Positions 1 through 12,990 of a DNA stretch of 12,990 nt are shown piece after piece (position 1 is the first letter of the stretch; each line of letters begins with the position of its first letter). A program made the translations under genes and the position numbers. The notes below the pieces were generated by a model. That model was not told where the DNA came from and made no database searches. It was given only the letters and a program-made list of their open reading frames with translations. The stretch covers positions 1-12,990 of the forward strand of contig CAZJVM010000066.1 of the NCBI GenBank assembly GCA_964549305.1. Reading direction: 5' to 3'. Source of the stretch: an uncultured bacterium (GTDB taxonomy: Bacteria > Schekmanbacteria > GWA2-38-11 > J061).

Positions 1-746
1 GATTCGATTCCATTAATACCCCTGATGCCGTAAACAGACTTCCTTCCGCCTGACCACATTATTCTTCTGGGTAAATATTCCTTTTCTTCTTTTATAGATG
101 TCTCCGTTTCCAATCCGTCGAGAAGCTTTTCAATCTGGGTTTTCTCTATCACTAAAGGCGCAGAAACAATCCCGTCACTGTCAACGAAAACCATTTTCCC
201 TTTGGGAATAATGACAAACGAAAGCTCTTCGTTTCTCTGACGACCTTCCACTTTAACCCTGCCTTCGAGGACAGCAACATTAGTTTCCTCTCGCTCATTT
301 ACCGAAACAATGAAATCTGTCCCTCTGACCGCGCATAATGCCGTAGGAGTTGAAATTTCAAAACTGCTTTTCTCACCTGTAATTTTTTTAACCATTATCC
401 GCACCTTACCCAAAATGAGATGCAGCAAATCTTTGCCATTCGAAACATTTTCAACTCTCTTTACAAAAGTAAACTTTGAAAGTTGCGCCACATTAATAAC
501 AGCGCCGTCGCTTACCAGCACCTTCGCATTTGACTTTTTACCCGTCACTAAATAGTCCCCTGCACAAAAGCGCTCTCTGATTTTAGGCGATTCACCTTCG
601 CTTCGCCCTTTTTTAAAAACATCTACATTTCCCTGAAAGCTTAAAAGGACACCTGTGATTTCAGAGGAATAAGAAGTATAATTATATAAAATTATATAAA
701 AAACGCAAATATAAAATGTAAAAAAAAGACGTAAATATTTTTTCAT
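1..746 (-). CDS. FecR-domain-containing exported/membrane protein (3' end runs off the window)
   Basis: Not in the ORF track. Manual translation from ATG at 746 stays open to the window edge: MKKYLRLFFTFYICVFYIILYNYTSYSSEITGVLLSFQGNVDV...GDYLVTGKKSNAKVLVSDGAVINV...LILGKVRIMV...FEISTPTALCAVRGTDFIVSV...TNVAVLEGRVKVEG. TPTA-x2-VRGTDF and VxVLEGxVxV are FecR-domain hallmarks. Basic/hydrophobic N-terminus. Confidence 0.85.
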   Translation of the reverse strand, partial: MKKYLRLFFTFYICVFYIILYNYTSYSSEITGVLLSFQGNVDVFKKGRSEGESPKIRERFCAGDYLVTGKKSNAKVLVSDGAVINVAQLSKFTFVKRVENVSNGKDLLHLILGKVRIMVKKITGEKSSFEISTPTALCAVRGTDFIVSVNEREETNVAVLEGRVKVEGRQRNEELSFVIIPKGKMVFVDSDGIVSAPLVIEKTQIEKLLDGLETETSIKEEKEYLPRRIMWSGGRKSVYGIRGINGIE

Positions 747-777
747 TATTTTTTAGATAAGACAGAAAAAGAGAGAA

Positions 778-2649
778 CTACAAAAGATCCTGCATTATTT
801 CAATGTCGCCGTTTTTCCTGTAATTGGCAACAACCTGAGAAACAATTATATTTTTTCTTTCTTCGATAATTTTCGCGCGAATGGATTGTTTTTTCGATTC
901 GAATTCTTTTTGGTCTATTTCATCCTTCCCCTTCAGCAAAACAATATAAGCGCCGTTTTGGCTAATTGAAAAATCCGCCCGCTTTTCTTCGCTGAGAGAA
1001 AAAACCAATGCCTTAAACTTCTCCCTGTCAATTGCATCTTCCGGCACTTCCCTTCTCAGAATTTTCCCGGTCGATTTAACTGCAATTTTATCTTTCTTCA
1101 CCACTTCATTTAATGACTTTCCTTCTTTAATCATCTTTACAACAGATGAAGCCTTTTTTTCCATAGCGCCGAACGCTCTTTCCTTCTTTAAATCAATCGC
1201 CACTTTGTCGGATACTTCCTCAAATGCGCCGTCGTGTGATGGTCTTTTCCCGAGAGTTTTTATAACGACAAAAAAAGGTCCAATATTTACCGGATTGCTT
1301 ACTTTGCCTTCATCGAGAGAATAGGCGGCATTAAAAAACTTTCCGCTGTTTGGAATACCCTCTATTGCCTTATTTCTGAATATGGTTTTTTTATTTATTT
1401 CCACTTTGTCATCTTTCGCGCCCTCTTCGATGAATTTCTTTATTTCCTTTGCCTTTGATAGAGCGAGTTCCTTCTCTTTTTTTCTTTCAAGACGGCGTTT
1501 AAGATTTTCACTGACATATTCAAAAGGTTTGACTTCTCCGGGGGAAAGTTTCTTTTCCACCGTTATTATGTGATAACCGAACGAAGACCTTACCAAATCG
1601 CTTATTTCTCCCTCATCCAACGCGAATGCGGCTTTTTCGAATTCAGGGTCCATTTCGCCCTTTCCGAAGAATCCAAGGTCGCCTCCTCTTGTTGTTGACA
1701 ATGGTTCATCTGAATAAAGCTTAGCAAGGTTTGTGAAATCTTTTCCTGCCTTTGCCTCTTTCAGTATTTTTTCCGCCTTTTTCTTGACCGCTTCTTCCTG
1801 AACGGGGTTATCATCAGGTTTGATTCTGAAAAGTATATGTCTTGCCTTGACTTTTTCGTCATCGACTTTAAATTCATCCTGATTCGAATCGTAATAGGAC
1901 TTTACCTCATCATCTGCAATCTTCGCGGAATTCATAAAATCATTTATTTCAATCTGCGCAAACTCCACATCGGCGGAATCTTCCACTTTGTACTTTGAGG
2001 TATTCTTCGTATAATAATCATTCAGCTCATCATCGGATACCTGAATGTCTTTCAGCAGTGAATCGATGGAAAAGAAAACATAATCCGCTTCCACTTTTTC
2101 GTTCTCCCCGATAAACTTCTGCATCAGTTCCCTATCGCTTACTACTGTGCAGTCTTCAAGCATCTTTCTTATCATATCGATACCGATTTCCTGCTTTTGG
2201 CCCGCGATAAAATCCTTGGGGTCGATTCTGTTGCGGTTGAGGACTGAAATCATCTGCCTTTTATCAAGGTTGCCGTTTTTGTCTTTGAAGACATCGTATG
2301 TCTTCAGTTTTTCCAGAAGGTCGTAATCGCTTGTTTTTATTCCCGTCTCTTCGAACACCTGCCTCATAAGCTCGCGCTCTACAAGCCTGTTTATGACCAT
2401 CTCCTTTATATTAATCTGCTTGAGGTACTGCTCGGCATTTTCCTTGAGTATATTCCTGATTTGATTTTCCGTCTGCATCAGCTCATTTTTGTACTGATTG
2501 TATGATATATTCACGCCGTTAACCTTTGCCACGGGAGGACCATCCCTGTCGTCACTGCCCATCACTCCGTAAAATGCTACAAAAGCGATAATTATTACCC
2601 ACAATATGGGCTGAAATTTCTTTGTGTTTCTTCTAAAATAATCAAACAT
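778..2649 (-). CDS. ppiD: PpiD-like periplasmic chaperone / parvulin peptidyl-prolyl isomerase with SurA N-terminal domain
   Basis: 623 aa. N-terminal membrane anchor (ILWVIIIAFVAFYGV), SurA_N-like VAKVNGVNIS, and a parvulin domain (KARHILF...FTNLAKLYSDEP...GGDLGFFGKGEMDPEFEKAAFAL...ISDLVRSSFGYHII). Size and architecture match PpiD. Confidence 0.85.
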   Translation of the reverse strand: MFDYFRRNTKKFQPILWVIIIAFVAFYGVMGSDDRDGPPVAKVNGVNISYNQYKNELMQTENQIRNILKENAEQYLKQINIKEMVINRLVERELMRQVFEETGIKTSDYDLLEKLKTYDVFKDKNGNLDKRQMISVLNRNRIDPKDFIAGQKQEIGIDMIRKMLEDCTVVSDRELMQKFIGENEKVEADYVFFSIDSLLKDIQVSDDELNDYYTKNTSKYKVEDSADVEFAQIEINDFMNSAKIADDEVKSYYDSNQDEFKVDDEKVKARHILFRIKPDDNPVQEEAVKKKAEKILKEAKAGKDFTNLAKLYSDEPLSTTRGGDLGFFGKGEMDPEFEKAAFALDEGEISDLVRSSFGYHIITVEKKLSPGEVKPFEYVSENLKRRLERKKEKELALSKAKEIKKFIEEGAKDDKVEINKKTIFRNKAIEGIPNSGKFFNAAYSLDEGKVSNPVNIGPFFVVIKTLGKRPSHDGAFEEVSDKVAIDLKKERAFGAMEKKASSVVKMIKEGKSLNEVVKKDKIAVKSTGKILRREVPEDAIDREKFKALVFSLSEEKRADFSISQNGAYIVLLKGKDEIDQKEFESKKQSIRAKIIEERKNIIVSQVVANYRKNGDIEIMQDLL

Positions 2650-4434
2650 TTATTTTGCGCTCCTTCTTAATTTTATTCCAAGCTCATTAAGCTGTTTCTC
2701 GCCCACGTCGGAAGGGGCGTTTGTCATCTGGCAAACTGCCTTCTGCGTTTTCGGAAAAGAAATAACTTCCCGTATGGAGCTTGCGCCTGCGAGTATCATC
2801 ACCAGTCTGTCCAGACCAAAGGCGATTCCTCCGTGAGGAGGCGCTCCGAACTGCAAAGCTTCGAGAAGAAAACCGAATTTCGCCCCCGCTTCCTCTTTCC
2901 CGATTCCCAAAGCATTGAACATCTTTTCCTGAACATCGTTGCGGTGAATTCTTATGCTTCCCCCGCCTACCTCCGAACCGTTCAGAACAAGGTCATATGC
3001 CTTCGCGCGAATCTTCGAAGGGTCTGTGTCGAGTAAAGGTATATCTTCATCTACGGGAGATGTAAAGGGATGATGCATTGCCACATACCTCTTTTCCTCG
3101 TCATTATATTCAAGAAGTGGAAAATCGGTAACCCACAGAAAATTATGTTTCTTTTGATCTATAAGCCCGAGATTATTTCCTATTTTCAACCTCAGGGCGG
3201 AAAGAGCGCGATAGACCACCTGCTTTTTATCTGCGACGATAAAGAGAGTATCGCCCGGTTCGGCGCCGAGTTTTTCCTTCATATTCTTTATTTCATCTTC
3301 ACTGAAGAATTTTACCACGGGAGACTGAAGATCTTTTTCAAGCACTTTTATCCATACAAGACCCTTAGCGCCCTCTCCCTTTACAAACTCCGTAAAATCA
3401 TCGAGCTCTTTTCTCGTCATTCCCGACGCGCCCTTTGCGTTGATGCCCGATATGAGTCCTTTACCGGAGATTACTCCCGAAAAAACCTTGAACTCCGATT
3501 TCTCAAAAACCTGCGTAAGATCAACAAGTTTCATATCAAACCTTGTATCCGGTTTATCGTTTCCGTAAGAGCTCATCGCTTCAGCATATGAAAGGCGCGG
3601 GAAAGGCGTCTCAATATCGATATGGGCAGATTCGGAAAAGACCGCCTTCATAAGCCCTTCCATAATCCTGTAAATATCCTCTCTTTCCACAAAGGACATC
3701 TCAACATCAATCTGCGTAAATTCAGGCTGTCTGTCGGCGCGAAGGTCTTCATCCCTGAAACATTTCACTATCTGATAGTATCTTTCAAATCCCGAAACCA
3801 TAAGTATCTGCTTGAAAAGCTGAGGAGATTGGGGAAGGGCAAAAAACTTTCCCCTGTTAACCCGGCTTGGCACCAGATAATCCCTTGCTCCTTCAGGCGT
3901 GCTCTTTGTAAGGAAAGGAGTTTCAATGTCAAGAAATCCTTCTTTATCAAAATAGCGGCGCACCGCTTTCGTCACATTGTAGCGAAGGATTATGTTTTTC
4001 TGAAGCGAAGGCCTTCTGAGGTCAAGATAGCGGTATTTAAGACGCACATCTTCGGCAACATTTATGTCGTCCTCAATCTGAAAGGGCGGAGTTTGCGCTG
4101 TGTTTAGTATTCTCAACTCCTCACCCACGACTTCTACTTCACCGGTTGGCATATTGGGGTTTGCCGTATCTCCCGGGCGAAGCCTCACTTTTCCTCTTAC
4201 AGCTATAACAAACTCCGACCGGAGCTTTTCAGCTTTGCCGTGAGAATCACTGTTCAATTCCTCGTCAAAAACAATCTGAGTTATTCCTTCCCTGTCGCGA
4301 AGGTCAATAAAAATAACTCCTCCGTGGTCACGTCTTCTCTGCACCCATCCCATCAATGTCACTTCCGCTTCATTATCCTTCGCGCTCAATATGCCGCAGG
4401 AATGAGTCCTCGTCAGTCCTTCAAGATTATCCAT
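2650..4434 (-). CDS. aspS: Aspartate--tRNA ligase (bacterial type, probably non-discriminating Asp/Asn)
   Basis: 594 aa. RTHSCG, GWVQRRRDHGGVIFIDLRD, RLKYRYLDLRR, TPEGARDY, ALPQSPQLFKQ, CFRDEDLRADRQPEFTQID, HHPFT, GGGSIRIH, GAPPHGGIAFGLDRL, FPKT. Confidence 0.99.
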   Translation of the reverse strand: MDNLEGLTRTHSCGILSAKDNEAEVTLMGWVQRRRDHGGVIFIDLRDREGITQIVFDEELNSDSHGKAEKLRSEFVIAVRGKVRLRPGDTANPNMPTGEVEVVGEELRILNTAQTPPFQIEDDINVAEDVRLKYRYLDLRRPSLQKNIILRYNVTKAVRRYFDKEGFLDIETPFLTKSTPEGARDYLVPSRVNRGKFFALPQSPQLFKQILMVSGFERYYQIVKCFRDEDLRADRQPEFTQIDVEMSFVEREDIYRIMEGLMKAVFSESAHIDIETPFPRLSYAEAMSSYGNDKPDTRFDMKLVDLTQVFEKSEFKVFSGVISGKGLISGINAKGASGMTRKELDDFTEFVKGEGAKGLVWIKVLEKDLQSPVVKFFSEDEIKNMKEKLGAEPGDTLFIVADKKQVVYRALSALRLKIGNNLGLIDQKKHNFLWVTDFPLLEYNDEEKRYVAMHHPFTSPVDEDIPLLDTDPSKIRAKAYDLVLNGSEVGGGSIRIHRNDVQEKMFNALGIGKEEAGAKFGFLLEALQFGAPPHGGIAFGLDRLVMILAGASSIREVISFPKTQKAVCQMTNAPSDVGEKQLNELGIKLRRSAK

Positions 4435-4481
4435 TCTAAATCACTCTCAGTTAAATGTAGTTAAAGATTTTAAGAGATGAG

Positions 4482-4511
4482 AGATTACAGTTTAAAAGGG
4501 CATATTGTCAA
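4482..4511 (-). promoter_or_regulatory. Putative sigma70 promoter for aspS-ppiD-fecR
   Basis: Minus strand: perfect -35 TTGACA (4511-4506), 18-nt spacer, -10-like TAATCT (4487-4482), about 48 nt upstream of the aspS ATG. Confidence 0.5.
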
Positions 4512-4568
4512 ACAAAAACTATTTCAAAAAAGGAGAAATAAATCCCACTGCATCTTGAGGGGCTAACT

Positions 4569-4597
4569 TTGACAAAGACGCGATAAAGAAGTAATAT
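4569..4597 (+). promoter_or_regulatory. Putative sigma70 promoter for the permuted iPGM gene
   Basis: Perfect -35 TTGACA (4569-4574), 17-nt spacer, -10-like TAATAT (4592-4597). GAGGGAG SD-like sequence at about 4621-4627 precedes ATG 4638. Confidence 0.65.
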
Positions 4598-4637
4598 TGC
4601 GGGAATTTTTTACATTAAAAGAGGGAGAAGCAGACAG

Positions 4638-6239
4638 ATGAGCAATAGTGAAAACAATAAAATATTTCCTATGAGCGAGGGCGTAAAATCCGCCTATGAC
4701 AGGGGTGAAGAAGACGAATCGATGAATCCCATAGTCCTCGAGGAAAATGGCATCCGTCCGGGAAAAATCGGTAATGAGGAGTATGTCATCTTTTACGACA
4801 TCAGGGGCGAAAGGGAAATCGAGCTTACAAAAAGTTTCATTGAAAAGGGATTCAGCGAATTCCCGAAAGAAGACAACCGCACCGCGAAATTCGTTACAAT
4901 GGTAGAGTACAGCAAGGACCTCGATGTGGATGTGGCATTTCCGCCTGAGGAGGAGATTGAAAATACACTATGCGAAGTAATAAGCAAAAACGGTCTGAAG
5001 CAGGCAAAGATTGTTGAAACCGAAAAAGCAGTGCATCTGAGCTATTTTTTGAACGGCAAAAGGAGCGAACCTTTTGAAGGTGAAGAGAGGATATTCATTC
5101 CTTCGCTTAAGGATATAAGCAATTATGATGACTATCCTGAAATGTGTATCGACAAAGTCACAGACACAGTGGAAAAATGCCTTTGTGAAGGAAAAAACAA
5201 TCTTGTAATAGCAAACTTCGCGAATGTTGATGTAGTGGGACATATAGAGAATGAATCAGCAGTAAAAAAAGCGGTCGAGGCAGTGGACAGGGCAATAGGA
5301 AAAGTCGTGGAATGCGCAGGCAAAAACGGCTATGCGAGCATCATAACGGCAGACCACGGAACTGTGGAAAAATGGCTTTATCCCGAAGGCACGGTAGATA
5401 CTGGACATACAAACAGTCCGGTACCATTCATAATAGTTTTTCCCGACAATGACTCCGGTAAACTGAAATTACAATTAAGGGAAGATGCTGAATTAAGCGA
5501 TGTGGCACCCACTGTTTTTGACCTGATGGACATTGATAAACCTTCCTCAATGACGGGAAAATCTATTATTGCGGAAAAGTCGAATTTATCAAAAGACCCT
5601 CGAAAAGTTCTTTTCCTCATATGTGACGGATGGGGATACAACGATAAATCCCAAGGCAACCTTATCGCGCAAAGCAAAACACCCAATATGGACAAGTTCA
5701 TGAAAAACTGTCCATTCACATCTATAATTTCATCAGGTAAGGCAGTTGGTATGCCCGCGGGCACTGTGGGAAATTCCGAAGTGGGACATCTTCATATCGG
5801 AGCGGGAAGAAGAATCTACTCCGACCGTTTGCGTATCGACAAGGCAATGGAAGACAACTCATTCTTCGAAAATGCAGCGTTCACCAAAGCGATGGAAGAA
5901 TCGATAAAAAACAATACCCCTCTTCATCTTCTCGGAATCGTTTCCTTTTACAGTTCACACGGTTCGATCACTGACCTTTTCGGACTGATGGAAATGGCAA
6001 AACAGAAAGGCGTAAAGGAAGTCTATATCCACTCCTTTTTGGGAAGACGCGGAGAAAGACCCGAAAGCGGCAGAAGATATATCAGGCAGGTTGAGGAAAA
6101 GGCGAAAGAACTTGGTGTGGGAAAACTCGTCGATGTTATGGGACGATTCTGGTCACTTGACCGCGAGGAAAACTGGGACAGAATCGAAAAAACATACCGC
6201 ACCCTCGCCTATCGTGAAGGCATAGCAGTAAAGGTTTAA
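4638..6239 (+). CDS. gpmI: 2,3-bisphosphoglycerate-independent phosphoglycerate mutase homologue (alkaline-phosphatase superfamily), circularly permuted
   Basis: All iPGM motifs are present but out of order. Residues ~12-311 carry AYDRGEEDE, IRGER, ETEKAVH, NFANVDVVGH, ITADHG, TGHTNSPVP, LSDVAPT, MTGKSII (canonical C-terminal part). Residues ~322-533 carry LFLICDGWG, KTPNMD, SGKAVGMP, GNSEVGHLHIGAGR, GRFWSLDRE-x-NWDRIEK (canonical N-terminal part). Confidence 0.9.
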   Translation: MSNSENNKIFPMSEGVKSAYDRGEEDESMNPIVLEENGIRPGKIGNEEYVIFYDIRGEREIELTKSFIEKGFSEFPKEDNRTAKFVTMVEYSKDLDVDVAFPPEEEIENTLCEVISKNGLKQAKIVETEKAVHLSYFLNGKRSEPFEGEERIFIPSLKDISNYDDYPEMCIDKVTDTVEKCLCEGKNNLVIANFANVDVVGHIENESAVKKAVEAVDRAIGKVVECAGKNGYASIITADHGTVEKWLYPEGTVDTGHTNSPVPFIIVFPDNDSGKLKLQLREDAELSDVAPTVFDLMDIDKPSSMTGKSIIAEKSNLSKDPRKVLFLICDGWGYNDKSQGNLIAQSKTPNMDKFMKNCPFTSIISSGKAVGMPAGTVGNSEVGHLHIGAGRRIYSDRLRIDKAMEDNSFFENAAFTKAMEESIKNNTPLHLLGIVSFYSSHGSITDLFGLMEMAKQKGVKEVYIHSFLGRRGERPESGRRYIRQVEEKAKELGVGKLVDVMGRFWSLDREENWDRIEKTYRTLAYREGIAVKV

Positions 6240-6300
6240 TTTAAAACATCATATTCATCTTACAAAACTTTCGGCTTTCTCCGTAAAAAAGGATTTTACA

Positions 6301-7134
6301 ATGGTTGCTAACAGGACACTCGCTTCTCTCTTAACGGCGCTCCTTCTCTTTTCCGCGTGCGTATTTATTGAGAAAGAAGCGCCACAGAAAAAGGAAGAAG
6401 CAAAGCTCACGAGTGCAGAAGAAGCGCAGGCACTCCTCAATGAGGGAGACGCGAATTACAAGGAAGGCAACTACGACCTTGCCATATCCGATTACAGCAA
6501 GGCAATAGAGATGGAACCCGGTCTTGCCGGGGCATACAACAATCGGGCAAGCGCATACAACATCAAAGGAGATTCCGCGCGCGCCATATCCGACTACACA
6601 AGGGCAATCGAGATAAATCCGGGTTACGCGTCGGCATACTACAACCGGGGCACGGTATACCAGCAGGGAGGCAAATACGACCTTGCAATCTTAGATTACG
6701 GCAGGGCAATCGAAATCAATCCTGATGACTGCGACGCATACTACAACCGGGGTCTAATCTACAGGAAAAAAAGAAATGACGAACTTGCCATAGCGGATTT
6801 TAACAATGCAGTCGAGATTAATCCAAAGCACGCTGACGCATTCTACAATCTGGGAATCATTTATGAAAAAAGAAACAGATATGACCTCGCTATATCCAGT
6901 TACGACAAAGTAATCGAAATTAATCCTCAAAACGCCAATGCATATCTGAACAGGGGAAATTCCTATTACAAGAAAGGCAAATACCAACTCGCCATATCAG
7001 ATTACAGCAAGGCAATCGAAATTAATCCTAAGAATGAGCAGGCATACTACAACCGAGGCACCGCTTACCAGACAATAGGCGAATACGACCTCGCCATATC
7101 AGACTTCGACAAGGCAATGGAGCTTAAGGAATAA
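6301..7134 (+). CDS. Tetratricopeptide repeat (TPR) lipoprotein
   Basis: 277 aa. Signal peptide ending in lipobox-like LFSA-C20, then seven 34-aa repeats of consensus AxAYyNRGxxYxxxgxYDLAIsDYxKAIEINP. AAGGA SD upstream. Confidence 0.92.
   Translation: MVANRTLASLLTALLLFSACVFIEKEAPQKKEEAKLTSAEEAQALLNEGDANYKEGNYDLAISDYSKAIEMEPGLAGAYNNRASAYNIKGDSARAISDYTRAIEINPGYASAYYNRGTVYQQGGKYDLAILDYGRAIEINPDDCDAYYNRGLIYRKKRNDELAIADFNNAVEINPKHADAFYNLGIIYEKRNRYDLAISSYDKVIEINPQNANAYLNRGNSYYKKGKYQLAISDYSKAIEINPKNEQAYYNRGTAYQTIGEYDLAISDFDKAMELKE
6424..7131 (+). repeat. Seven tandem 102-bp TPR-coding repeats
   Basis: 102-nt periodicity. For example gccatatccgattacagcaaggcaatagag (6481-6510) vs gccatatcagattacagcaaggcaatcgaa (6991-7020): 27/30 identical, 510 nt (5 x 102) apart. 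Confidence 0.85.
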
Positions 7135-7189
7135 TTACTCAATTCCGTTTCCCCGTGCTGCTCTCTCACCGCATGAACTGTTTTCACAG

Positions 7190-7210
7190 ACGGATTTTTA
7201 CCGAATCCGT
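7190..7210. terminator. Inverted repeat between convergent genes, possible terminator or mRNA-stabilising hairpin
   Basis: ACGGATT (7190-7196) / AATCCGT (7204-7210), 7-bp stem with 7-nt loop, 4 nt past the ccp stop. No U-tract on either strand, so it is weak as an intrinsic terminator. Confidence 0.35.
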
Positions 7211-7214
7211 AATG

Positions 7215-8255
7215 TCAATCAAGTTTGGGTCTGGGAGTCTTATCAGTAGGTTCAGGCAAAACCGGATATTCGATTTTCGGCTGTTTTCCTGTAGTCGTTT
7301 TCAGGAAAGATACTATTTTGCCCGCTTCTTCGCCGGTAACTGAATTGCCAAGCTGAATATCAGCCATTATCTTTACCGCTTCCTTCAAATCCCATACTCT
7401 GCCGGAATGAAAATAGGGCGCAGTGAGGGCGATATTTCTCAATGAAGGCGCCTTGAAGAAATACTTGTCGGGAAGCTTTCCGGTAATTTTATATCTTCCC
7501 GTATCCCCCGAAAGTATTGCCTCGGGCGGTTTCTTCGCGAGACCAAAGGGAAAATATCCCTCTCCTCCCATATTAATGCCATTGTGGCAGGCAGAGCATC
7601 CTTTGGTAATATACATTTCAAGACCTTCTCTTTCGCTCTTGCTTAGCGCCGATGCGTCGCCCTTCAGAAACAAATCAAACTTTGAATCAGGTGTGAGAAG
7701 AGTCGCCTCGAAAACTTCGATTGCCTTTGCCATATTGTCGAAAGAAACAGGGTCTTTCTCTTTGGGAAACGCTTTTTCGAAAGCGTCAATATAACCGGGC
7801 ATACTCTTAAGAGTCTTAATCACATCTTCCGGCTTGTTGTTCATCTCCACCGATGCCTGCACAGGTCCCTTCGCCTGCTCTTCAAGGTCCTTTGCCCTCC
7901 CGTCCCAGAATTGCGCCACATTGAAAACAGAGTTAAGCACCGTGGGCGCGTTTCTCTCACCGCGATTCCATCCGTGCCCGGTGGAAGTTTCCTGATAGTC
8001 CGCTCCGCCCAATCCAAGGTTGTGACAGGTGTTACAGCTTATAAGGGCGCTTGCCGAAAGGCGCGGTTCGAAAAAGAGCATTTTTCCAAGTTCCACTTTC
8101 GCGGGCGTGGCGTCGTTGCCTTCAATCGCGGAGGCGCGGTCGGGAATCACCTTGAAGAAATTCTGCGCCTTGTTCATCAATTCATCCTCGGCGTAAGAAA
8201 TCCCCGTTACAAGCAGAGCGGAAAATAAAAGCGCAAAAATAACAATTCTCTTCAT
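7215..8255 (-). CDS. ccp: Bacterial di-haem cytochrome c peroxidase (CcpA-type), periplasmic
   Basis: Sec signal (MKRIVIFALLFSALLVTGISYA), LGKMLFFEPRLS, two haem motifs CNTCH and CSACH, distal-His loop TSTGHGW, RNAPTV, QFWDGRA, QAKGP..EM, FKAPSLRN, APYFHSG, Met-ligand region KIMADIQLG. GGAGG SD (8268-8264) favours ATG 8255 over TTG 8258. Confidence 0.96.
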   Translation of the reverse strand: MKRIVIFALLFSALLVTGISYAEDELMNKAQNFFKVIPDRASAIEGNDATPAKVELGKMLFFEPRLSASALISCNTCHNLGLGGADYQETSTGHGWNRGERNAPTVLNSVFNVAQFWDGRAKDLEEQAKGPVQASVEMNNKPEDVIKTLKSMPGYIDAFEKAFPKEKDPVSFDNMAKAIEVFEATLLTPDSKFDLFLKGDASALSKSEREGLEMYITKGCSACHNGINMGGEGYFPFGLAKKPPEAILSGDTGRYKITGKLPDKYFFKAPSLRNIALTAPYFHSGRVWDLKEAVKIMADIQLGNSVTGEEAGKIVSFLKTTTGKQPKIEYPVLPEPTDKTPRPKLD

Positions 8256-8277
8256 CAACTTGTCCTCCCAATAAAAT

Positions 8278-10227
8278 TTAATTTATAACGGCTTTCAGCT
8301 TCTTCATCTCGGGAATTATTTCAGCCAATCCGAGCGTTTCGAGATTATCTTCCTTCTGTAATCCCGAAACGCTGTCCCATCCCCTGAGATTGTAATAATC
8401 GGTCATCATTTCATCAAACTCTTCCCTGTTCACAACACTTCCTTTTCTCGACACAAGGTTGCCGGAATTTCCGGGAAGCATAAATTCCGGATTGAACATT
8501 CCGAAAAATCCCGGAGACTCTTCAAAGGTTTCACTGTAATTGAATTCATTGAGAATATCATCCTCTCTGCCTCTTCGCCCTTCCCTGCACTGAATAGCCC
8601 GTTGAAGATTGAATGTTCTCTCACCGCTCAGATAGTATTTCGCCTCGTCGAAATTCTCGCCCGTAACCGCTGAAAGGAGGCGGCTTTCCAGGCAAGGGTC
8701 GCCGACCATATCCCCGGCGCCTTCGGCTACGGTAAGAGGAAAAAGGAAATCACAGACAACGAGATTTTCCTTTGCGTATTCTCTGTCCTGAATAATGCGT
8801 GCAACATCTGCCTTGCCCCGGAAGGAAGAGAAATCTACGGCATTTTCGCTTCCCCAGAATTTTTTTGCAACTTTCCGCATTACTTCCGTACTCACGGGGG
8901 ACATAGCTCCATTCGTGGCATACCACATAACCCACTTCATCATAGGCATACATATTTCGTGAAGCTGATTTATAATGCTCGTTGTTTCCGTTGCGTAAAA
9001 AACCGAGTTTGTAAGGAAAAATCTCGGATTGTAAAAGTTTGCATCCCTTCCGTTGGGCGTAAGGAAGCTTTCGATTATACCTGTGCAGGAATCCCCTATT
9101 TGCTTACCCGTCCTTACTGTGCCTTCCGCAAGCAAATCGCCCAACCCTTTGCGATTTATAATAATATCAACAAGATTTTCTATGAATTCAAGGCTTCCGA
9201 TTTCAGATAGCGGAATTCCGGTGTCTTTATCGTTCAAAATTCCTCTTTCACCGCACTTGTACAGAAAGCTGAGAATGCTTCCCATTTCGTGCGTATCGAG
9301 CCCGTTTCTGTTGCAAAGGGAAGTCGCTATGAATGTATTGGGAGTGGATTCACCCTTGTTATATTTCTGGTCCCACAAAAAATACATAAATGCCGACTGG
9401 CAGTTTTTTCTGTATTCCTCTCTGCCGGAAACATGTTTCAATATTCCTCTCGGACAACCTGCGGGACAGGCAGGACAAGGGGTCTTTTTTACTAGTTCGG
9501 TCCCCGCAGTCTCAAGTCCTATAAGCTCTCTGCCCTTTATGAGAGAACGGATGTACGCGTTTGTCTCCTTGAGTTCGTCGGGTTTCGCCACAAGCGGTTT
9601 CCCGCTCCCCTCTACGACTATCGCCTTAAGGTTTTTTGCCCCCATTACAGCGCCGAATCCCGCGCCCGCGCAGGCGCCTCTGTCACTCATAATTATGGAA
9701 AATCTGATCTTCCTTTCTCCCGCGGGACCTATGCAAAGCGCCTGTGAATTAACACCATGACTTTTCGCCAGAGCATCGAGAGTGTCATCGGTTTTTCTTC
9801 CCCACAATGCGCCGGCATCCTCAAATCTGATTTTGTCATCTTTGATATGTATATAGGAAGGTCTCTCCGATTTTCCCGTAATCACTATCCCGTCATATCC
9901 TGCCGATTTAAGTGAAATAGCGAAACTGCCTCCCACATTACCGTATGAAAACTGGTCCGGATATAAAAGCGGCGATTTGCCTCCAATCACCCATCTCGAA
10001 CCCGCGACAGCAGAAGTCCCTGCGAGAGGACCCGTCATAAGAATAAGAGGACTGTCGCGGTGAAGGGCATCCTTTCCCCTATCTGAATAATCCCAGTAAA
10101 TTTTTGAAAGGATTCCCCTGCCTCCCACGAATTTATCACAGTACTTATCAGTGGGGATTGTCTGAATATCTCCCGAGGAAAGATCAAGGGCTAAAATCCT
10201 GCCGCACCATCCGAAATATTTATCCAT
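8278..10227 (-). CDS. Aldehyde:ferredoxin oxidoreductase (AOR/WOR) family W/Mo-bis-pterin, [4Fe-4S] enzyme
   Basis: 649 aa. GWCGRILALDLSSG, VGGRG, TGPLAG, KSP, LKSAGYDGIVITGKS, LWG, CIGPAGE, GAVMGAKNLKAI, CPACPAGC plus late VVCDF (4Fe-4S ligands), CNRNGLD, RKGLGDLLAEG, GER, YYNLRGWD..G. Confidence 0.93.
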   Translation of the reverse strand: MDKYFGWCGRILALDLSSGDIQTIPTDKYCDKFVGGRGILSKIYWDYSDRGKDALHRDSPLILMTGPLAGTSAVAGSRWVIGGKSPLLYPDQFSYGNVGGSFAISLKSAGYDGIVITGKSERPSYIHIKDDKIRFEDAGALWGRKTDDTLDALAKSHGVNSQALCIGPAGERKIRFSIIMSDRGACAGAGFGAVMGAKNLKAIVVEGSGKPLVAKPDELKETNAYIRSLIKGRELIGLETAGTELVKKTPCPACPAGCPRGILKHVSGREEYRKNCQSAFMYFLWDQKYNKGESTPNTFIATSLCNRNGLDTHEMGSILSFLYKCGERGILNDKDTGIPLSEIGSLEFIENLVDIIINRKGLGDLLAEGTVRTGKQIGDSCTGIIESFLTPNGRDANFYNPRFFLTNSVFYATETTSIINQLHEICMPMMKWVMWYATNGAMSPVSTEVMRKVAKKFWGSENAVDFSSFRGKADVARIIQDREYAKENLVVCDFLFPLTVAEGAGDMVGDPCLESRLLSAVTGENFDEAKYYLSGERTFNLQRAIQCREGRRGREDDILNEFNYSETFEESPGFFGMFNPEFMLPGNSGNLVSRKGSVVNREEFDEMMTDYYNLRGWDSVSGLQKEDNLETLGLAEIIPEMKKLKAVIN

Positions 10228-10266
10228 TTCTCATCAACCTCGCACAATATAAAGGAGTTTGCTATT

Positions 10267-11238
10267 TCAGTAATGCACCGTTGGCGGCATTCCCATAAGG
10301 CGTATCGCTCCAAAGGGATGATTTCTCGCTCTTGCCATTTTAACGGCGCCGTCCTTCAGGAAAAGATACTCCATCCAATGGGCGCGCATCTCATTCATTC
10401 GAAGTTTATCCTTTCCGCTTTCCTCTTCATCTTTATGCTTCCTGACAATATCCGCGTATGATGACAGAAGGGTTTCCGCTCCTTCCTTCGCGATGCCCAT
10501 AGCCCGGGAAAGGTTGAGCATTTTGAGCTGTATTCCTGCGCCTGCGGAAAGAGGTTTTTCCCATTCTTCCATATTGTATTGCTTTTGAAGGCCCGCACTG
10601 AGCTTTTCGTGGTCATAGCCGTATTTTTCCGCCACAGCTTTCATTTTCTTCCTTACTCCTTCTATGACGTCTTCAGGAGTCGATGCGGGAAAGACATCAA
10701 AGTTCGTATTGATTATATCTTTGCGGGCATCGAGGCGCTCGATATTGAGATGCCCCATGGGAATCTTTGAAGAACGGGGAAATATTTCTACCTGTATAAC
10801 GCGTATATCCACAGGATCGCCTTCCTTTGCCAATCCTCTTTCAATCATAAATTCCGACGGTTTTTTATATTTTATGACTATCTCCGATACAGTCGCTTTC
10901 TCGAAAACACTGCCTCTTGAAACATTCACTTCGTGCCGGTATGAAGATTCGCTTCCCGAATCCTTTTCCTCTGACGGTGTCATATGGGTAAATGTTTTCT
11001 TTTCCCATTTCTCGCCGTTGAATTCCGAAATTACGCTGATAGCGCGGGCTTTGAAGGAGTCCATAAATTTGTCCGCTTGAAAGAGAAGATTGTCAGGCAT
11101 TTTTTTCACCTCTTGCGCCAAAGTTTCCGGTTGCGAGTAAGAAATCCCGAAAGATGCGCACACTAAAACAAAGAGCAACAGCAAAGGCGCTTTATCTAAA
11201 ATATTTTTTTTATTTTCCGCTGTTCTTCCAGTATTCAT
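10267..11238 (-). CDS. Divergent HemF (oxygen-dependent coproporphyrinogen III oxidase)-like protein with N-terminal signal/membrane segment; function unknown
   Basis: Collinear matches to HemF as I recall it: GSVFEKATVS ~ GGVFEQAGVN; EIFPRSSKIPMGHLN ~ VVHPHNPYVPTSHAN; FDVFP ~ FDLTP; SYADIVRKHK ~ AYLPIVERRK; MRAHWMEYLFLKD ~ RRGRYVEFNLVWD; MGMPPTVHY ~ MSMPPLVRW. Start uncertain: TTG 11253, ATG 11250, ATG 11238, or ATG 11100 (has a GAGGTG SD). Confidence 0.75.
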   Translation of the reverse strand: MNTGRTAENKKNILDKAPLLLLFVLVCASFGISYSQPETLAQEVKKMPDNLLFQADKFMDSFKARAISVISEFNGEKWEKKTFTHMTPSEEKDSGSESSYRHEVNVSRGSVFEKATVSEIVIKYKKPSEFMIERGLAKEGDPVDIRVIQVEIFPRSSKIPMGHLNIERLDARKDIINTNFDVFPASTPEDVIEGVRKKMKAVAEKYGYDHEKLSAGLQKQYNMEEWEKPLSAGAGIQLKMLNLSRAMGIAKEGAETLLSSYADIVRKHKDEEESGKDKLRMNEMRAHWMEYLFLKDGAVKMARARNHPFGAIRLMGMPPTVHY

Positions 11239-12691
11239 CCCATTTTTCATCAACTAATTTAAAGGACTCGGGAACCATTTTTTCCAGCTGAACCTTGCTT
11301 ATGAGAGGCCATTGCGCGGGTCCTCCCTCAATTGGAAGCTGTCTTGTGGCATCGATTACAATCTTGCTCGAAATACCTCTCTGCTTCATACTCGGGTCAA
11401 GCCCCATATTAAATGCCTGAGGTATAATCAGACTTGCCGGATGGGGTTGCCATCTCGTGGAAACCGCGTGAAGGACTTCAGTAATATTGGTAACATCCAC
11501 ATCGTCATCTACGACTATTATAATCTTCGACGTCCCCACTCCCAGCGCAATCTGCCCCGCAGTGATACCCATTCCGGGGAACCTCTTGCTGATGCTTAAA
11601 ATAGATATGCCTATAGCTTCCATTGGAGAATATAAATCCGTCATATAGGGAATGACCTGCTTAAGTTTGATATAGTTGCCAACCTGCCACGGCAGCATAT
11701 GGGATGTATAAGTCACTCCCGTGAAATTGTTGAATGTCCAGGGATTCTTTTTATGAGTTATCGCTTTCACATTCATATAATAGGTTTCGTGTTTTTTACC
11801 CATATAGCCGTACATTTCGCCGTAAGGTCCTTCCTCCTCCATCTCCGCGATGACGTCGCCTTCGATAATCATTTCCGCCTCCGCGGGTACCATAAGACTG
11901 CTTGTTTCGCATTTAACGAGTTCTACGGGTTTACCCTTTACACCCCCGGCATACTCTAACTCGTCTTCGCCCATATCTGCCACCTTGGTGCTTGCCATAG
12001 AATAGATTACGGGCTCAACCCCGAGAGCGATTGCCGCGGGAATCGATTTTTGCCCCTGCCTGACCGCTTTCATTATAAACTGCCAACCGTGCTGTCCCGG
12101 TTCGGTATTCATCCCTATCTTGTTTTTTCCCTTTACCTGCAACCTGTAAGTGCCCACATTTCGGCCAAGCTGAGGGTCTTCCATAAAAACCGAACCCGTG
12201 TTTATGTATTGGGCAACATCGCCGGGATTGTTCTTAAACCAGGGAAATTTATAGACATCAACATCATTTTCCTCTATTACAACCTCCTTGCAGGGAGGGT
12301 TGTCTCCGCTGAATTCAACGGGTTTGATTCTCTTCCATTTGCCGTTATTGTCAACGAAACCGATAAGTTTATCCATTACCGCCCTGTACATCGCGCCCGC
12401 GTCATCGGTAACATTTTCCACTCCAAACATCATCGCCGCGGTTTCCCATCCGCAGAATTGGTTGGAAATAACCGGACCTTCCATCAATTCGCCGTTGATT
12501 TTCACTTTTTCAAAAATAAGCGCGGGACAGCGGTCCGCGCCAAGTTTTTCAATCATTCTGTAGACAAAGGCAGTGCCTTCATATTTGTCCTGGTCAATCT
12601 CCGGAATTCTAAGCACCTTGCCTCTTTCCTCAAGAGCGTTTATATATTCCCGCATTGAATCGTAAGGACCCGTAGCTTTTACATTGCTCAT
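11210..12691 (-). CDS. UbiD-family prenylated-FMN-dependent (de)carboxylase
   Basis: SMREYINALEERG, FEKVK, PCKEVVI, RNVGTYRLQ, QHG, AEMIIEG, EGPYGEMYGY, IIIVVDDDVDV, LDPS, KIVIDAT. Start moved from 12811 (ORF track) to ATG 12691 because of a TAAGGAG SD at 12707-12701 and because homology begins there (493 aa). Substrate cannot be assigned. Confidence 0.95.
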   Translation of the reverse strand: MSNVKATGPYDSMREYINALEERGKVLRIPEIDQDKYEGTAFVYRMIEKLGADRCPALIFEKVKINGELMEGPVISNQFCGWETAAMMFGVENVTDDAGAMYRAVMDKLIGFVDNNGKWKRIKPVEFSGDNPPCKEVVIEENDVDVYKFPWFKNNPGDVAQYINTGSVFMEDPQLGRNVGTYRLQVKGKNKIGMNTEPGQHGWQFIMKAVRQGQKSIPAAIALGVEPVIYSMASTKVADMGEDELEYAGGVKGKPVELVKCETSSLMVPAEAEMIIEGDVIAEMEEEGPYGEMYGYMGKKHETYYMNVKAITHKKNPWTFNNFTGVTYTSHMLPWQVGNYIKLKQVIPYMTDLYSPMEAIGISILSISKRFPGMGITAGQIALGVGTSKIIIVVDDDVDVTNITEVLHAVSTRWQPHPASLIIPQAFNMGLDPSMKQRGISSKIVIDATRQLPIEGGPAQWPLISKVQLEKMVPESFKLVDEKWDEYWKNSGK

Positions 12692-12881
12692 AGAAAATAT
12701 CTCCTTAAAATTATGAATGTTGGAACGGTAAAACAAATCTTCCACTTTTGTAAATCTAAAAATCATATATGCAAAGTAAAAAAACATCAAATAACTATGC
12801 GATTTTTTCATTGGATTTAGTAAAAGGATGGTAAAGAATCAAGATATAAAATATTATTTTTGCTTAGAGTTATTATTTTTA

Positions 12882-12911
12882 AATATATTTAAATTATTTT
12901 TTTCAGGTCAA
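12882..12911 (-). promoter_or_regulatory. Candidate sigma70 promoter for the ubiD-like operon
   Basis: Minus strand TTGACC (12911-12906), 18-nt spacer, TATATT (12887-12882), in a very AT-rich intergenic region where chance matches are likely. Confidence 0.4.
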
Positions 12912-12990
12912 TGGGGAAGTTTTTATCCTTATTGAAAAATACAAACGTTTTTTTATTTGACAAATTGATACTCATACTATAAAAAACAGC

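Follow-up and report, generated by a model that had tools for sequence, protein, structure and literature searches.

Four genes lie one behind the other on the minus strand of contig CAZJVM010000066.1 (assembly GCA_964549305.1, an uncultured bacterium of the Schekmanbacteria lineage), and their products, a UbiD-family decarboxylase, a protein with the fold of coproporphyrinogen oxidase (HemF), a tungsten/molybdenum (W/Mo) enzyme of the aldehyde ferredoxin oxidoreductase (AOR) family and a cytochrome c peroxidase, raise the question of whether they serve one undescribed pathway, as a preliminary description of this DNA had proposed. The window analysed here is the whole stretch from position 1 to 12,990 of the contig. 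We consider it probable, though well short of certain, that the genes form a lineage-specific string of four co-oriented genes without a demonstrable common pathway, in a genome related to Ca. Schekmanbacteria. A single pathway using all four products is unsupported, in view of the canonical, exported nature of the peroxidase (CcpA), the unequal sizes of the protein families, the absence of shared contigs by a contig-length proxy (0/29) and the gene context of a distant relative of the HemF-like gene (L001), each of which is set out below.

Open reading frames (ORFs) were found where the four co-oriented genes had been placed (in their longest forms 11210-12811, 10267-11253, 8278-10227 and 7215-8258, consecutive and all on the minus strand), and Pfam and NCBIfam agree with the family names given to them: UbiD, HemF-like, AOR and ccp. 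The start of ubiD is ATG 12691, which has AGGAG upstream; the ORF 11210-12811 is an artefact of an AT-rich leader, and the gene proper (11210-12691, minus strand) encodes a predicted prenylated flavin mononucleotide (prFMN)-type (de)carboxylase of 493 aa. For the HemF-like gene (10267-11100, minus strand; 277 aa) the start is most likely ATG 11100, because 21 of 29 relatives are exactly 277 aa long, the window Met at this position coincides with the start in 22 of 25 aligned relatives, and GAGGTG lies 6 nt upstream. With this start, ubiD and the HemF-like gene would most likely stand 109 nt apart (11101-11209, minus strand), and the overlap or near abutment of the two that had been described is true only for the longest ORF (TTG 11253), whereas the other spacings were as described, with 39 nt between the HemF-like stop and the ATG of the AOR gene (8278-10227, minus strand; 649 aa) and 22 nt between the AOR stop and ccp (7215-8258, minus strand; 347 aa) if the latter starts at ATG 8255 (19 nt for TTG 8258). 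The string ends at a convergent spacer (7135-7214) between ccp and a plus-strand tetratricopeptide repeat (TPR) gene, with a weak fold (z -0.95).

The 51 in-frame codons upstream of the HemF-like start (11101-11253, minus strand) resemble a good signal peptide, opening with basic residues and continuing with a hydrophobic run of 16 residues and a cleavage-like site of small residues; the extension has no ribosome-binding site, is absent from aligned relatives and is probably not translated. The corresponding 328-aa ORF from TTG 11253, whose product would be periplasmic like CcpA, was rejected as the principal reading, since the aligned relatives start at the internal Met and this is the sole start with a ribosome-binding site. 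N-terminal signal- or anchor-like segments, together with extra domains, occur in two distant HemF-like relatives, P0154 (423 aa) and P0194 (461 aa).

The region upstream of ubiD (12692-12990, minus strand) is likely the ubiD promoter and possibly that of the whole string. Its AT-rich character, pointed out before, is borne out by 22.4% G+C in 299 nt (vs. about 46% in the genes), and it holds the best sigma-70-like site (12911-12882, 10/12 matches), although over the whole region promoter-like sites are in no excess (13 vs. 9.9 +/- 3.4 in shuffles). A computed scan found no terminator-like sites in any of the three intergenic spacers; the 109-nt spacer also lacks promoter-like sites and folds no better than shuffles (z +1.62), and an Rfam search of the window gave zero matches. 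Co-transcription of the four genes is plausible, and they would probably be transcribed from the AT-rich region upstream of ubiD. The shared strand carries no signal in itself, given that four genes would be expected on one strand in 1 of 8 cases under random orientation. A further promoter-like site with an extended-10 TG (8342-8315, minus strand) falls within the 3'-terminal part of the AOR gene, some 57 nt ahead of where ccp starts, and ccp might have a separate transcript from it. Recent horizontal transfer of the string was considered and rejected, as the codon usage of the four genes resembles that of the window's housekeeping genes (cosine 0.92-0.95 to the aspartyl-tRNA synthetase gene, AspRS, in the same window).

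The peroxidase matches PF03150 (1.1e-58), Geobacter sulfurreducens CcpA (3hq6; E 3.2e-147, residues 10-346) and MacA (E 5.4e-142), and its translation contains CNTCH and CSACH, that is, two CxxCH motifs, behind a hydrophobic signal-like N-terminal segment. Its prediction as a canonical bacterial di-haem CcpA, exported and functioning as a periplasmic H2O2 reductase, is well founded. As an ordinary and exported enzyme, CcpA is an improbable member of a cytoplasmic small-molecule pathway; in the reading that we favour it would be exported and reduce H2O2 in the periplasm, apart from the other three products.

The HemF-like protein is divergent. It scores just over the gathering score of PF01218 (32.1 vs. 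31.8 bits) and does not reach the NF003727 equivalog (34.6 vs. 297 bits), but its homology with HemF is well established by hhalign (99% probability; 18% identity). An AlphaFold (AF2) model built on 45 sequences (predicted local distance difference test, pLDDT, 93.4; predicted template modelling score, pTM, 0.91) matched 2qt8 in Foldseek (3.5e-12; template modelling score, TM, 0.81) and the full-length coproporphyrinogen oxidases of Leishmania, Klebsiella, human, Acinetobacter and yeast (TM 0.77-0.82). The next fold neighbours are ferredoxin-dependent bilin reductases (FDBRs) and red chlorophyll catabolite reductase (TM about 0.45-0.57), and the kinship between the coproporphyrinogen oxidase and bilin reductase folds has also been noted in the available text of PMC10151467. 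The earlier statement that the HemF fold binds tetrapyrroles holds: the protein does have this fold, whose known structural relatives all bind a cyclic or linear tetrapyrrole.

The family to which it belongs is rare. A search of 5.8 billion clusters gave 30 matches at E<=1e-3, and a profile run against 1.84 billion representatives found 85 with E<=1e-3, 33 with E<=1e-10 and 5 with E<=1e-30; the nearest relative (P0006, 72% identical) is a fragment of 193 aa, and tblastn against plasmids returned no HemF-like match. In a tree of 45 sequences the 22 HemF-like members form one clade (SH-aLRT 99), in which the window copy branches first, as the earliest branch of the 277-aa family, and which is separated by a branch of 1.21 from nine canonical HemFs (n=9, taken as those with an NCBIfam score >=297). 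Among 38 columns invariant in these nine, 14 are retained by 20 or more of the 22 HemF-like members, including one of six invariant Arg and one of three invariant His. Counterparts of human His258, Asn260, Asp282 and Asp400 are all retained, and the first three of these (His117, Asn119 and Asp135) are invariant in 22/22 members. Arg262 is changed to Glu121, Ser244 to Gln103 and the first His of the HP motif to Phe (Ser244 and the HP-motif His being placed by spacing). According to the available text of a preprint (10.64898/2026.07.02.735896), His258, Asn260 and Asp282 are catalytic, and Arg262 and Ser244 take part in substrate recognition. With the catalytic pair kept and the carboxylate-binding arginines lost, the ligand is probably a different and less acidic one of the tetrapyrrole type, and it is unlikely that the protein acts on coproporphyrinogen III. 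We envisage a cofactor-free protein whose ligand would probably be tetrapyrrole-like and poorer in free carboxylates than coproporphyrinogen III. The excerpted review of the tolyporphin cluster (PMC10548856), the one relevant item found in the literature on HemF-like proteins, describes in HemF2 an earlier case of a HemF paralogue that has taken on another substrate. The value of this rare, arginine-poor family lies in its pointing to a different tetrapyrrole-type substrate in bacteria that are likely anaerobes.

The peroxidase and the HemF-like protein could also be read together, as parts of a unit by which an anaerobe meets exposure to O2 or peroxide: CcpA would remove H2O2, an O2-using HemF-type enzyme would step in for a tetrapyrrole reaction whenever radical S-adenosylmethionine (SAM) enzymes fail, and the other two genes would be co-regulated bystanders. 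In E. coli, hemF and ccp are both OxyR-responsive. The canonical nature of CcpA and the retention of the catalytic His/Asn/Asp equivalents of the O2-dependent oxidase agree with such a unit, but the score of 34.6 vs. 297 bits and the loss of five of six invariant Arg make coproporphyrinogen III an unlikely substrate, and neither a regulator gene nor a recognisable operator was identified. Moreover, enzymes of the two bystander types, W/Mo enzymes of the AOR family and prFMN enzymes, are generally oxygen-sensitive (available text of PMC12096430 and PMC8379154). We regard this explanation as very unlikely.

The third product, a predicted W/Mo-bis-pyranopterin and [4Fe-4S] large subunit of the AOR/WOR family, has both expected domains (PF02730, 4.9e-62; PF01314, 3e-47), and its best NCBIfam model is YdhV (260.6 bits vs. 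a cut-off of 868). Relatives at E<=1e-60 number 1246 among 8000 scored, the best non-self one being 62% identical; against plasmids, tblastn matches reached about 30% identity at most and included no near relative. Five cysteines are invariant in the 28 sequences aligned, the [4Fe-4S] cysteines Cys251, Cys254, Cys258 and Cys492 and, in addition, Cys276. The last of these lies 18 residues after the third cluster Cys, which is the spacing of Glu313 in the AOR of Pyrococcus furiosus (PfAOR); it pairs with Cys322 of BamB in a profile alignment to 4z3w, and its column is likewise invariant when the sequence of E. coli YdhV, obtained from an annotated record, is aligned. In the available text of a 2025 review (PMC12096430), Cys322 ligates the tungsten of BamB and is described as shared by every BamB and YdhV sequence and lacking in all other members. 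The residues kept in aldehyde-oxidising members are given as Thr243, Glu313, Tyr427 and His448 (PMC12096430 and PMC13328260, both in part). A profile of 28 clade members found P. furiosus formaldehyde ferredoxin oxidoreductase (FOR; 1.5e-85) and AOR (9.7e-80) as the best structures, mainly via the N-terminal domain; an equivalent of Tyr427 (PfAOR numbering) is present, and residues 400-515, approximately, fail to align with the P. furiosus enzymes, the positions of Thr243 and His448 lying in that region.

These residues bear on the two roles that had been offered for the AOR-family protein. Low-potential reduction is favoured by the BamB/YdhV-type Cys, while the interconversion of aldehyde and acid became doubtful with the loss of the Glu313 equivalent. 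The metal is probably cysteine-ligated, as in BamB and YdhV, and one aligned residue together with the literature suggests that the protein is probably not a classical aldehyde oxidoreductase. It would be a solitary large subunit, more likely a ferredoxin-linked reductase than an aldehyde oxidiser, with no small ferredoxin-like, Hdr-like or BamC-I-type partner genes present in the 12,990-nt window. What is known of cysteine-ligated members is limited: aromatic ring reduction is the only known reaction of such a member (PMC12096430, available text), and in the excerpts of PMC13328260 BamB stands alone in the family in having a known substrate other than an aldehyde, no activity is known for enzymes of the YdhV type (of 46 aldehydes, one such subunit oxidised none), and the WOR family is split into 92 clades, with YdhV as clade 41 in Class V. 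The window protein is neither BamB nor YdhV. The clade of solitary Cys-type enzymes is large, so that, if this reading is true, many proteins labelled 'aldehyde ferredoxin oxidoreductase' are probably not aldehyde oxidisers. A variant of 535 aa (P0234) matches the window protein at 99% identity for 511 residues, beyond which the two differ as if by a frameshift; it comes from a near-identical strain or reflects a sequencing error in another assembly.

The UbiD-family protein scores over the gathering scores of PF20695, PF01977 and PF20696 and over the cut-off of TIGR00148 (273.5 vs. 244.85 bits). In an alignment to 7ae4 the catalytic E..R..E motif is conserved (the GTYR Arg and both Glu of EGPxGE), as described for the E(D)-R-E motif in the available text of PMC8379154. 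The nearest solved structures are a VdcC-type phenolic acid decarboxylase (7ae4, 8.3e-50), HmfF (6h6v/6h6x, about 4e-43) and E. coli UbiD (about 1.4e-35), with Fdc1, AroY, PA0254 and phthaloyl-CoA decarboxylase farther away. All NCBIfam equivalog scores are under their cut-offs (VdcC, NF041204, 255.4 vs. 650 bits; UbiD 146.3 vs. 788; the menaquinone type, SCO4490, 186.9 vs. 495.9). Among 8000 candidates scored, 921 are relatives at E<=1e-60; the closest (85% identical, named Candidatus Schekmanbacteria) is partial at a contig end, and tblastn matches in plasmids, at 30% identity or less, include no near relative. The entry for the window gene itself in the protein collection (P0058, 324 aa) begins at an internal Met and seems to have been called too short.

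A maximum-likelihood tree was built from the window protein, 26 of its 120 best relatives and four references from annotated plasmids (Priestia megaterium vdcC, Kosakonia ubiD and two Aromatoleum aromaticum EbN1 genes, together representing VdcC, E. coli-type UbiD and Pcd-like proteins); menaquinone-type, Fdc1, AroY, HmfF and HudA sequences were not among the references. The tree unites the window protein with the 26 relatives in a single clade (100/100 support); the four references all fall outside it, on long branches whose mutual order is unsettled. The separation from quinone-pathway decarboxylases, on which the preliminary description had staked its proposal, was thereby upheld, with the Kosakonia UbiD excluded from the clade of 27. 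By sequence, the protein is placed in a large uncharacterised clade apart from the housekeeping quinone enzyme. It would act in the cytoplasm with prFMN as cofactor, taking CO2 reversibly off an aromatic, heteroaromatic or acrylic acid, and would need a UbiX encoded elsewhere: a domain scan found no gene for ubiX or vdcD in the 12,990-nt window, and beside ubiD there is neither a small Zn-ribbon ORF nor a ubiX-like gene, in contrast with the vdcBCD locus of P. megaterium.

Linkage of the genes in other genomes was assessed by a proxy, namely equal nucleotide size of the 'longest contig' across 30 HemF-like, 120 best UbiD and 120 best AOR matches; it covers the longest contig per 90% cluster and relatives down to about 47-50% identity, that is, the best 120 of 921 UbiD and 120 of 1246 AOR relatives. 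The conserved synteny of the HemF-like gene with ubiD and AOR that the proposed pathway called for was not seen by this contig-match proxy: with the window's own 20,097-nt contig excluded, none of the 29 HemF-like relatives (0/29) matched a UbiD or AOR contig, ten of them being on contigs of at least 5 kb, up to 310,547 nt. For UbiD and AOR, three common sizes (2301, 2162 and 23,205 nt) were found among 119 non-self entries per list, where about one is expected by chance. The matches at 2301 and 2162 nt are chance, because both genes need 3,165 and 3,429 nt, respectively, more than these contigs hold (the two entries of the 2162-nt match also come from different sources), but the 23,205-nt match is credible (UbiD relative P0081, 60%, and AOR relative P0256, 59%). 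Two UbiD relatives (68% and 63%) are found on a 613,962-nt Schekmanbacteria contig, which occurs in neither the HemF-like list nor the AOR top 120. The numbers of relatives, 30 HemF-like as against 921 UbiD and 1246 AOR, imply that in nearly every host the UbiD and AOR clades do without the HemF-like protein.

A genome scan for the HemF-like protein yielded two relatives from 40 pattern matches. One of them, L002, scores 389 bits as a canonical HemF, and its gene context is unrelated. The other (L001, on a contig of an uncultured deltaproteobacterial metagenome-assembled genome) is a relative of 251 aa, 25-27% identical, and in its neighbourhood, which is the context of one distant relative, no ubiD, AOR or ccp was found. 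In that contig (2864-13753) the HemF-like relative stands directly after a bilin-reductase-like ORF (PF05996, 6.8e-18), in a co-oriented string behind a TetR gene; the string also encodes an amidohydrolase-2 protein, a flavodoxin-domain protein and a flavoprotein of the geranylgeranyl reductase family, besides several genes or gene fragments for FAD-linked oxidases. By its gene content this string is possibly a tetrapyrrole- or bilin-related cluster.

The bearing of these results on the proposed pathway is largely negative. In that pathway, an undescribed route would act on a heteroaromatic, pyrrole-derived or tetrapyrrole-derived acid or aldehyde that the HemF-like protein binds and whose carbonyl or carboxyl group the AOR-family protein and UbiD alter, ccp being optional. 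It is hard to reconcile with HemF-like relatives that share no contig with close UbiD or AOR relatives in the proxy (0/29) and with family sizes that differ at least thirty-fold, even though the spacing of the genes is tight, terminator-like sites are missing and the superfamily of the HemF-like fold binds tetrapyrroles only. The UbiD is nearest, among solved structures, to decarboxylases of aromatic and heteroaromatic acids (VdcC 8e-50, HmfF about 4e-43), but the step from aldehyde to acid is doubtful for an AOR without the Glu313 equivalent, and CcpA is canonical and exported. The adjacency of L001 to an FDBR-like and a geranylgeranyl-reductase-family gene, and the HemF2 precedent (PMC10548856, in excerpt), count in favour of the proposed route. 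No publication describing a UbiD/HemF-like/AOR cluster was found, judged on titles and abstract starts, and the terms UbiD, decarboxylase, coproporphyrinogen and peroxidase have 0 occurrences in the available text of PMC13328260, which deals with WOR neighbourhoods. Taken together, we hold such a route to be highly improbable.

The credible 23,205-nt match suggests a narrower alternative, a two-gene module in which UbiD and the Cys-type W/Mo enzyme combine anaerobic (de)carboxylation of an aromatic acid with low-potential reduction, the HemF-like gene and ccp being passengers. A chance match at such a size is improbable, the BamB/YdhV-type Cys is invariant in the AOR clade, and the sole known reaction of a Cys-ligated member is the reduction of an aromatic ring (PMC12096430, available text). 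It is nevertheless one credible match among 119 non-self entries per list, the other two being chance, and in the window itself ubiD and the AOR gene are not neighbours. BamB, furthermore, needs BamC-I and a segment with a Zn/proton conduit, the latter missing here, and the window encodes neither a CoA ligase nor a small ferredoxin-like subunit. We judge this module unlikely. A variant of three genes can be envisaged as well, a lineage-specific anaerobic module of the three cytoplasmic products in which the HemF-like protein would hold a pyrrolic or tetrapyrrole-derived substrate, the Cys-ligated W/Mo enzyme would feed in low-potential electrons and UbiD would remove or add a carboxyl group; its electron delivery would resemble the chemistry of BamB or the feeding of cofactor-free bilin reductases by ferredoxin. 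Were it true, it would bring to light a new kind of transformation of a tetrapyrrole or heteroaromatic compound and would give a Cys-type WOR other than BamB a function for the first time, but we give it the slimmest chance of all the explanations weighed here.

We therefore return to a lineage-specific string whose four products appear not to be functionally coupled. Several points weigh against this preference. A single transcript would agree with the spacers of 39 and 19-22 nt and with the lack of terminator-like sites, and co-transcribed genes are often functionally related; the three cytoplasmic products have a loose common theme in (hetero)aromatic or tetrapyrrole chemistry; and the linkage of UbiD and AOR may be recurrent, given the 23,205-nt match of P0081 and P0256. 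In addition, synteny was judged by the longest-contig proxy, on the best 120 of 921 and 1246 relatives and not on real neighbourhoods, and the closest relatives are uninformative on neighbours, the UbiD one (85%) being partial at a contig end and the HemF-like one (P0006) a fragment. With the pathway unsupported so far, the main value of the gene string is one of annotation, with specialist interest in the Cys-type AOR and the arginine-poor HemF-like protein.

Elsewhere in the window (4638-6239, plus strand) there is a gene for a cofactor-independent phosphoglycerate mutase of 533 aa, on whose identity Pfam and NCBIfam agree and which is circularly permuted. Compared with the Geobacillus stearothermophilus enzyme (1ejj), residues 322-529 align with 4-211 and residues 14-312 with 218-510. 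The gene carries a ribosome-binding site of its own, and the DNA shows no repeats that would hint at an assembly artefact. No report of a permuted phosphoglycerate mutase was found in the literature.

Among known systems, VdcC/BsdC and HmfF are the nearest to the window UbiD by solved structure and share its E..R..E motif, but the window protein is about 30% identical to them, lies below the VdcC cut-off and in a separate clade, and has no vdcD or vdcB/ubiX gene adjoining. The HemF-like protein has the same fold as HemF/CPOX and keeps the catalytic equivalents, but ends about 20 residues earlier and forms a separate clade; its likeness to HemF2 of the tolyporphin cluster follows from the description in the excerpted review (PMC10548856), not from a sequence comparison. 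With BamB, the W subunit of class II benzoyl-CoA reductase, and with YdhV, an E. coli Mo protein, the AOR-family protein has in common the two-domain AOR/WOR architecture, the C-x2-C-x3-C...C motif and a Cys at the position of the Cys322 ligand. It differs from YdhV in being 29% identical and under the 868-bit cut-off, and from the Class V systems (defined in the available text of PMC13328260; ydhYVWXUT in E. coli) in that the window has no YdhY-type ferredoxin subunit, Tat-signal WorS or membrane subunits. Compared with BamB, the segment that carries the Zn/proton-conduit residues Glu251, His255, Glu257 and His260 is missing (BamB 232-298 faces only 234-250), and no BamC-type subunit adjoins the gene. 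The N-terminal domain is very similar to that of P. furiosus AOR and FOR, and the Tyr427 equivalent is kept, but the Glu313 equivalent is Cys276 and the central region (about 400-515) is unaligned. The peroxidase, by contrast, has no notable differences from Geobacter sulfurreducens CcpA and MacA, with which it shares a full-length match, two CxxCH motifs and a signal-like N-terminus.

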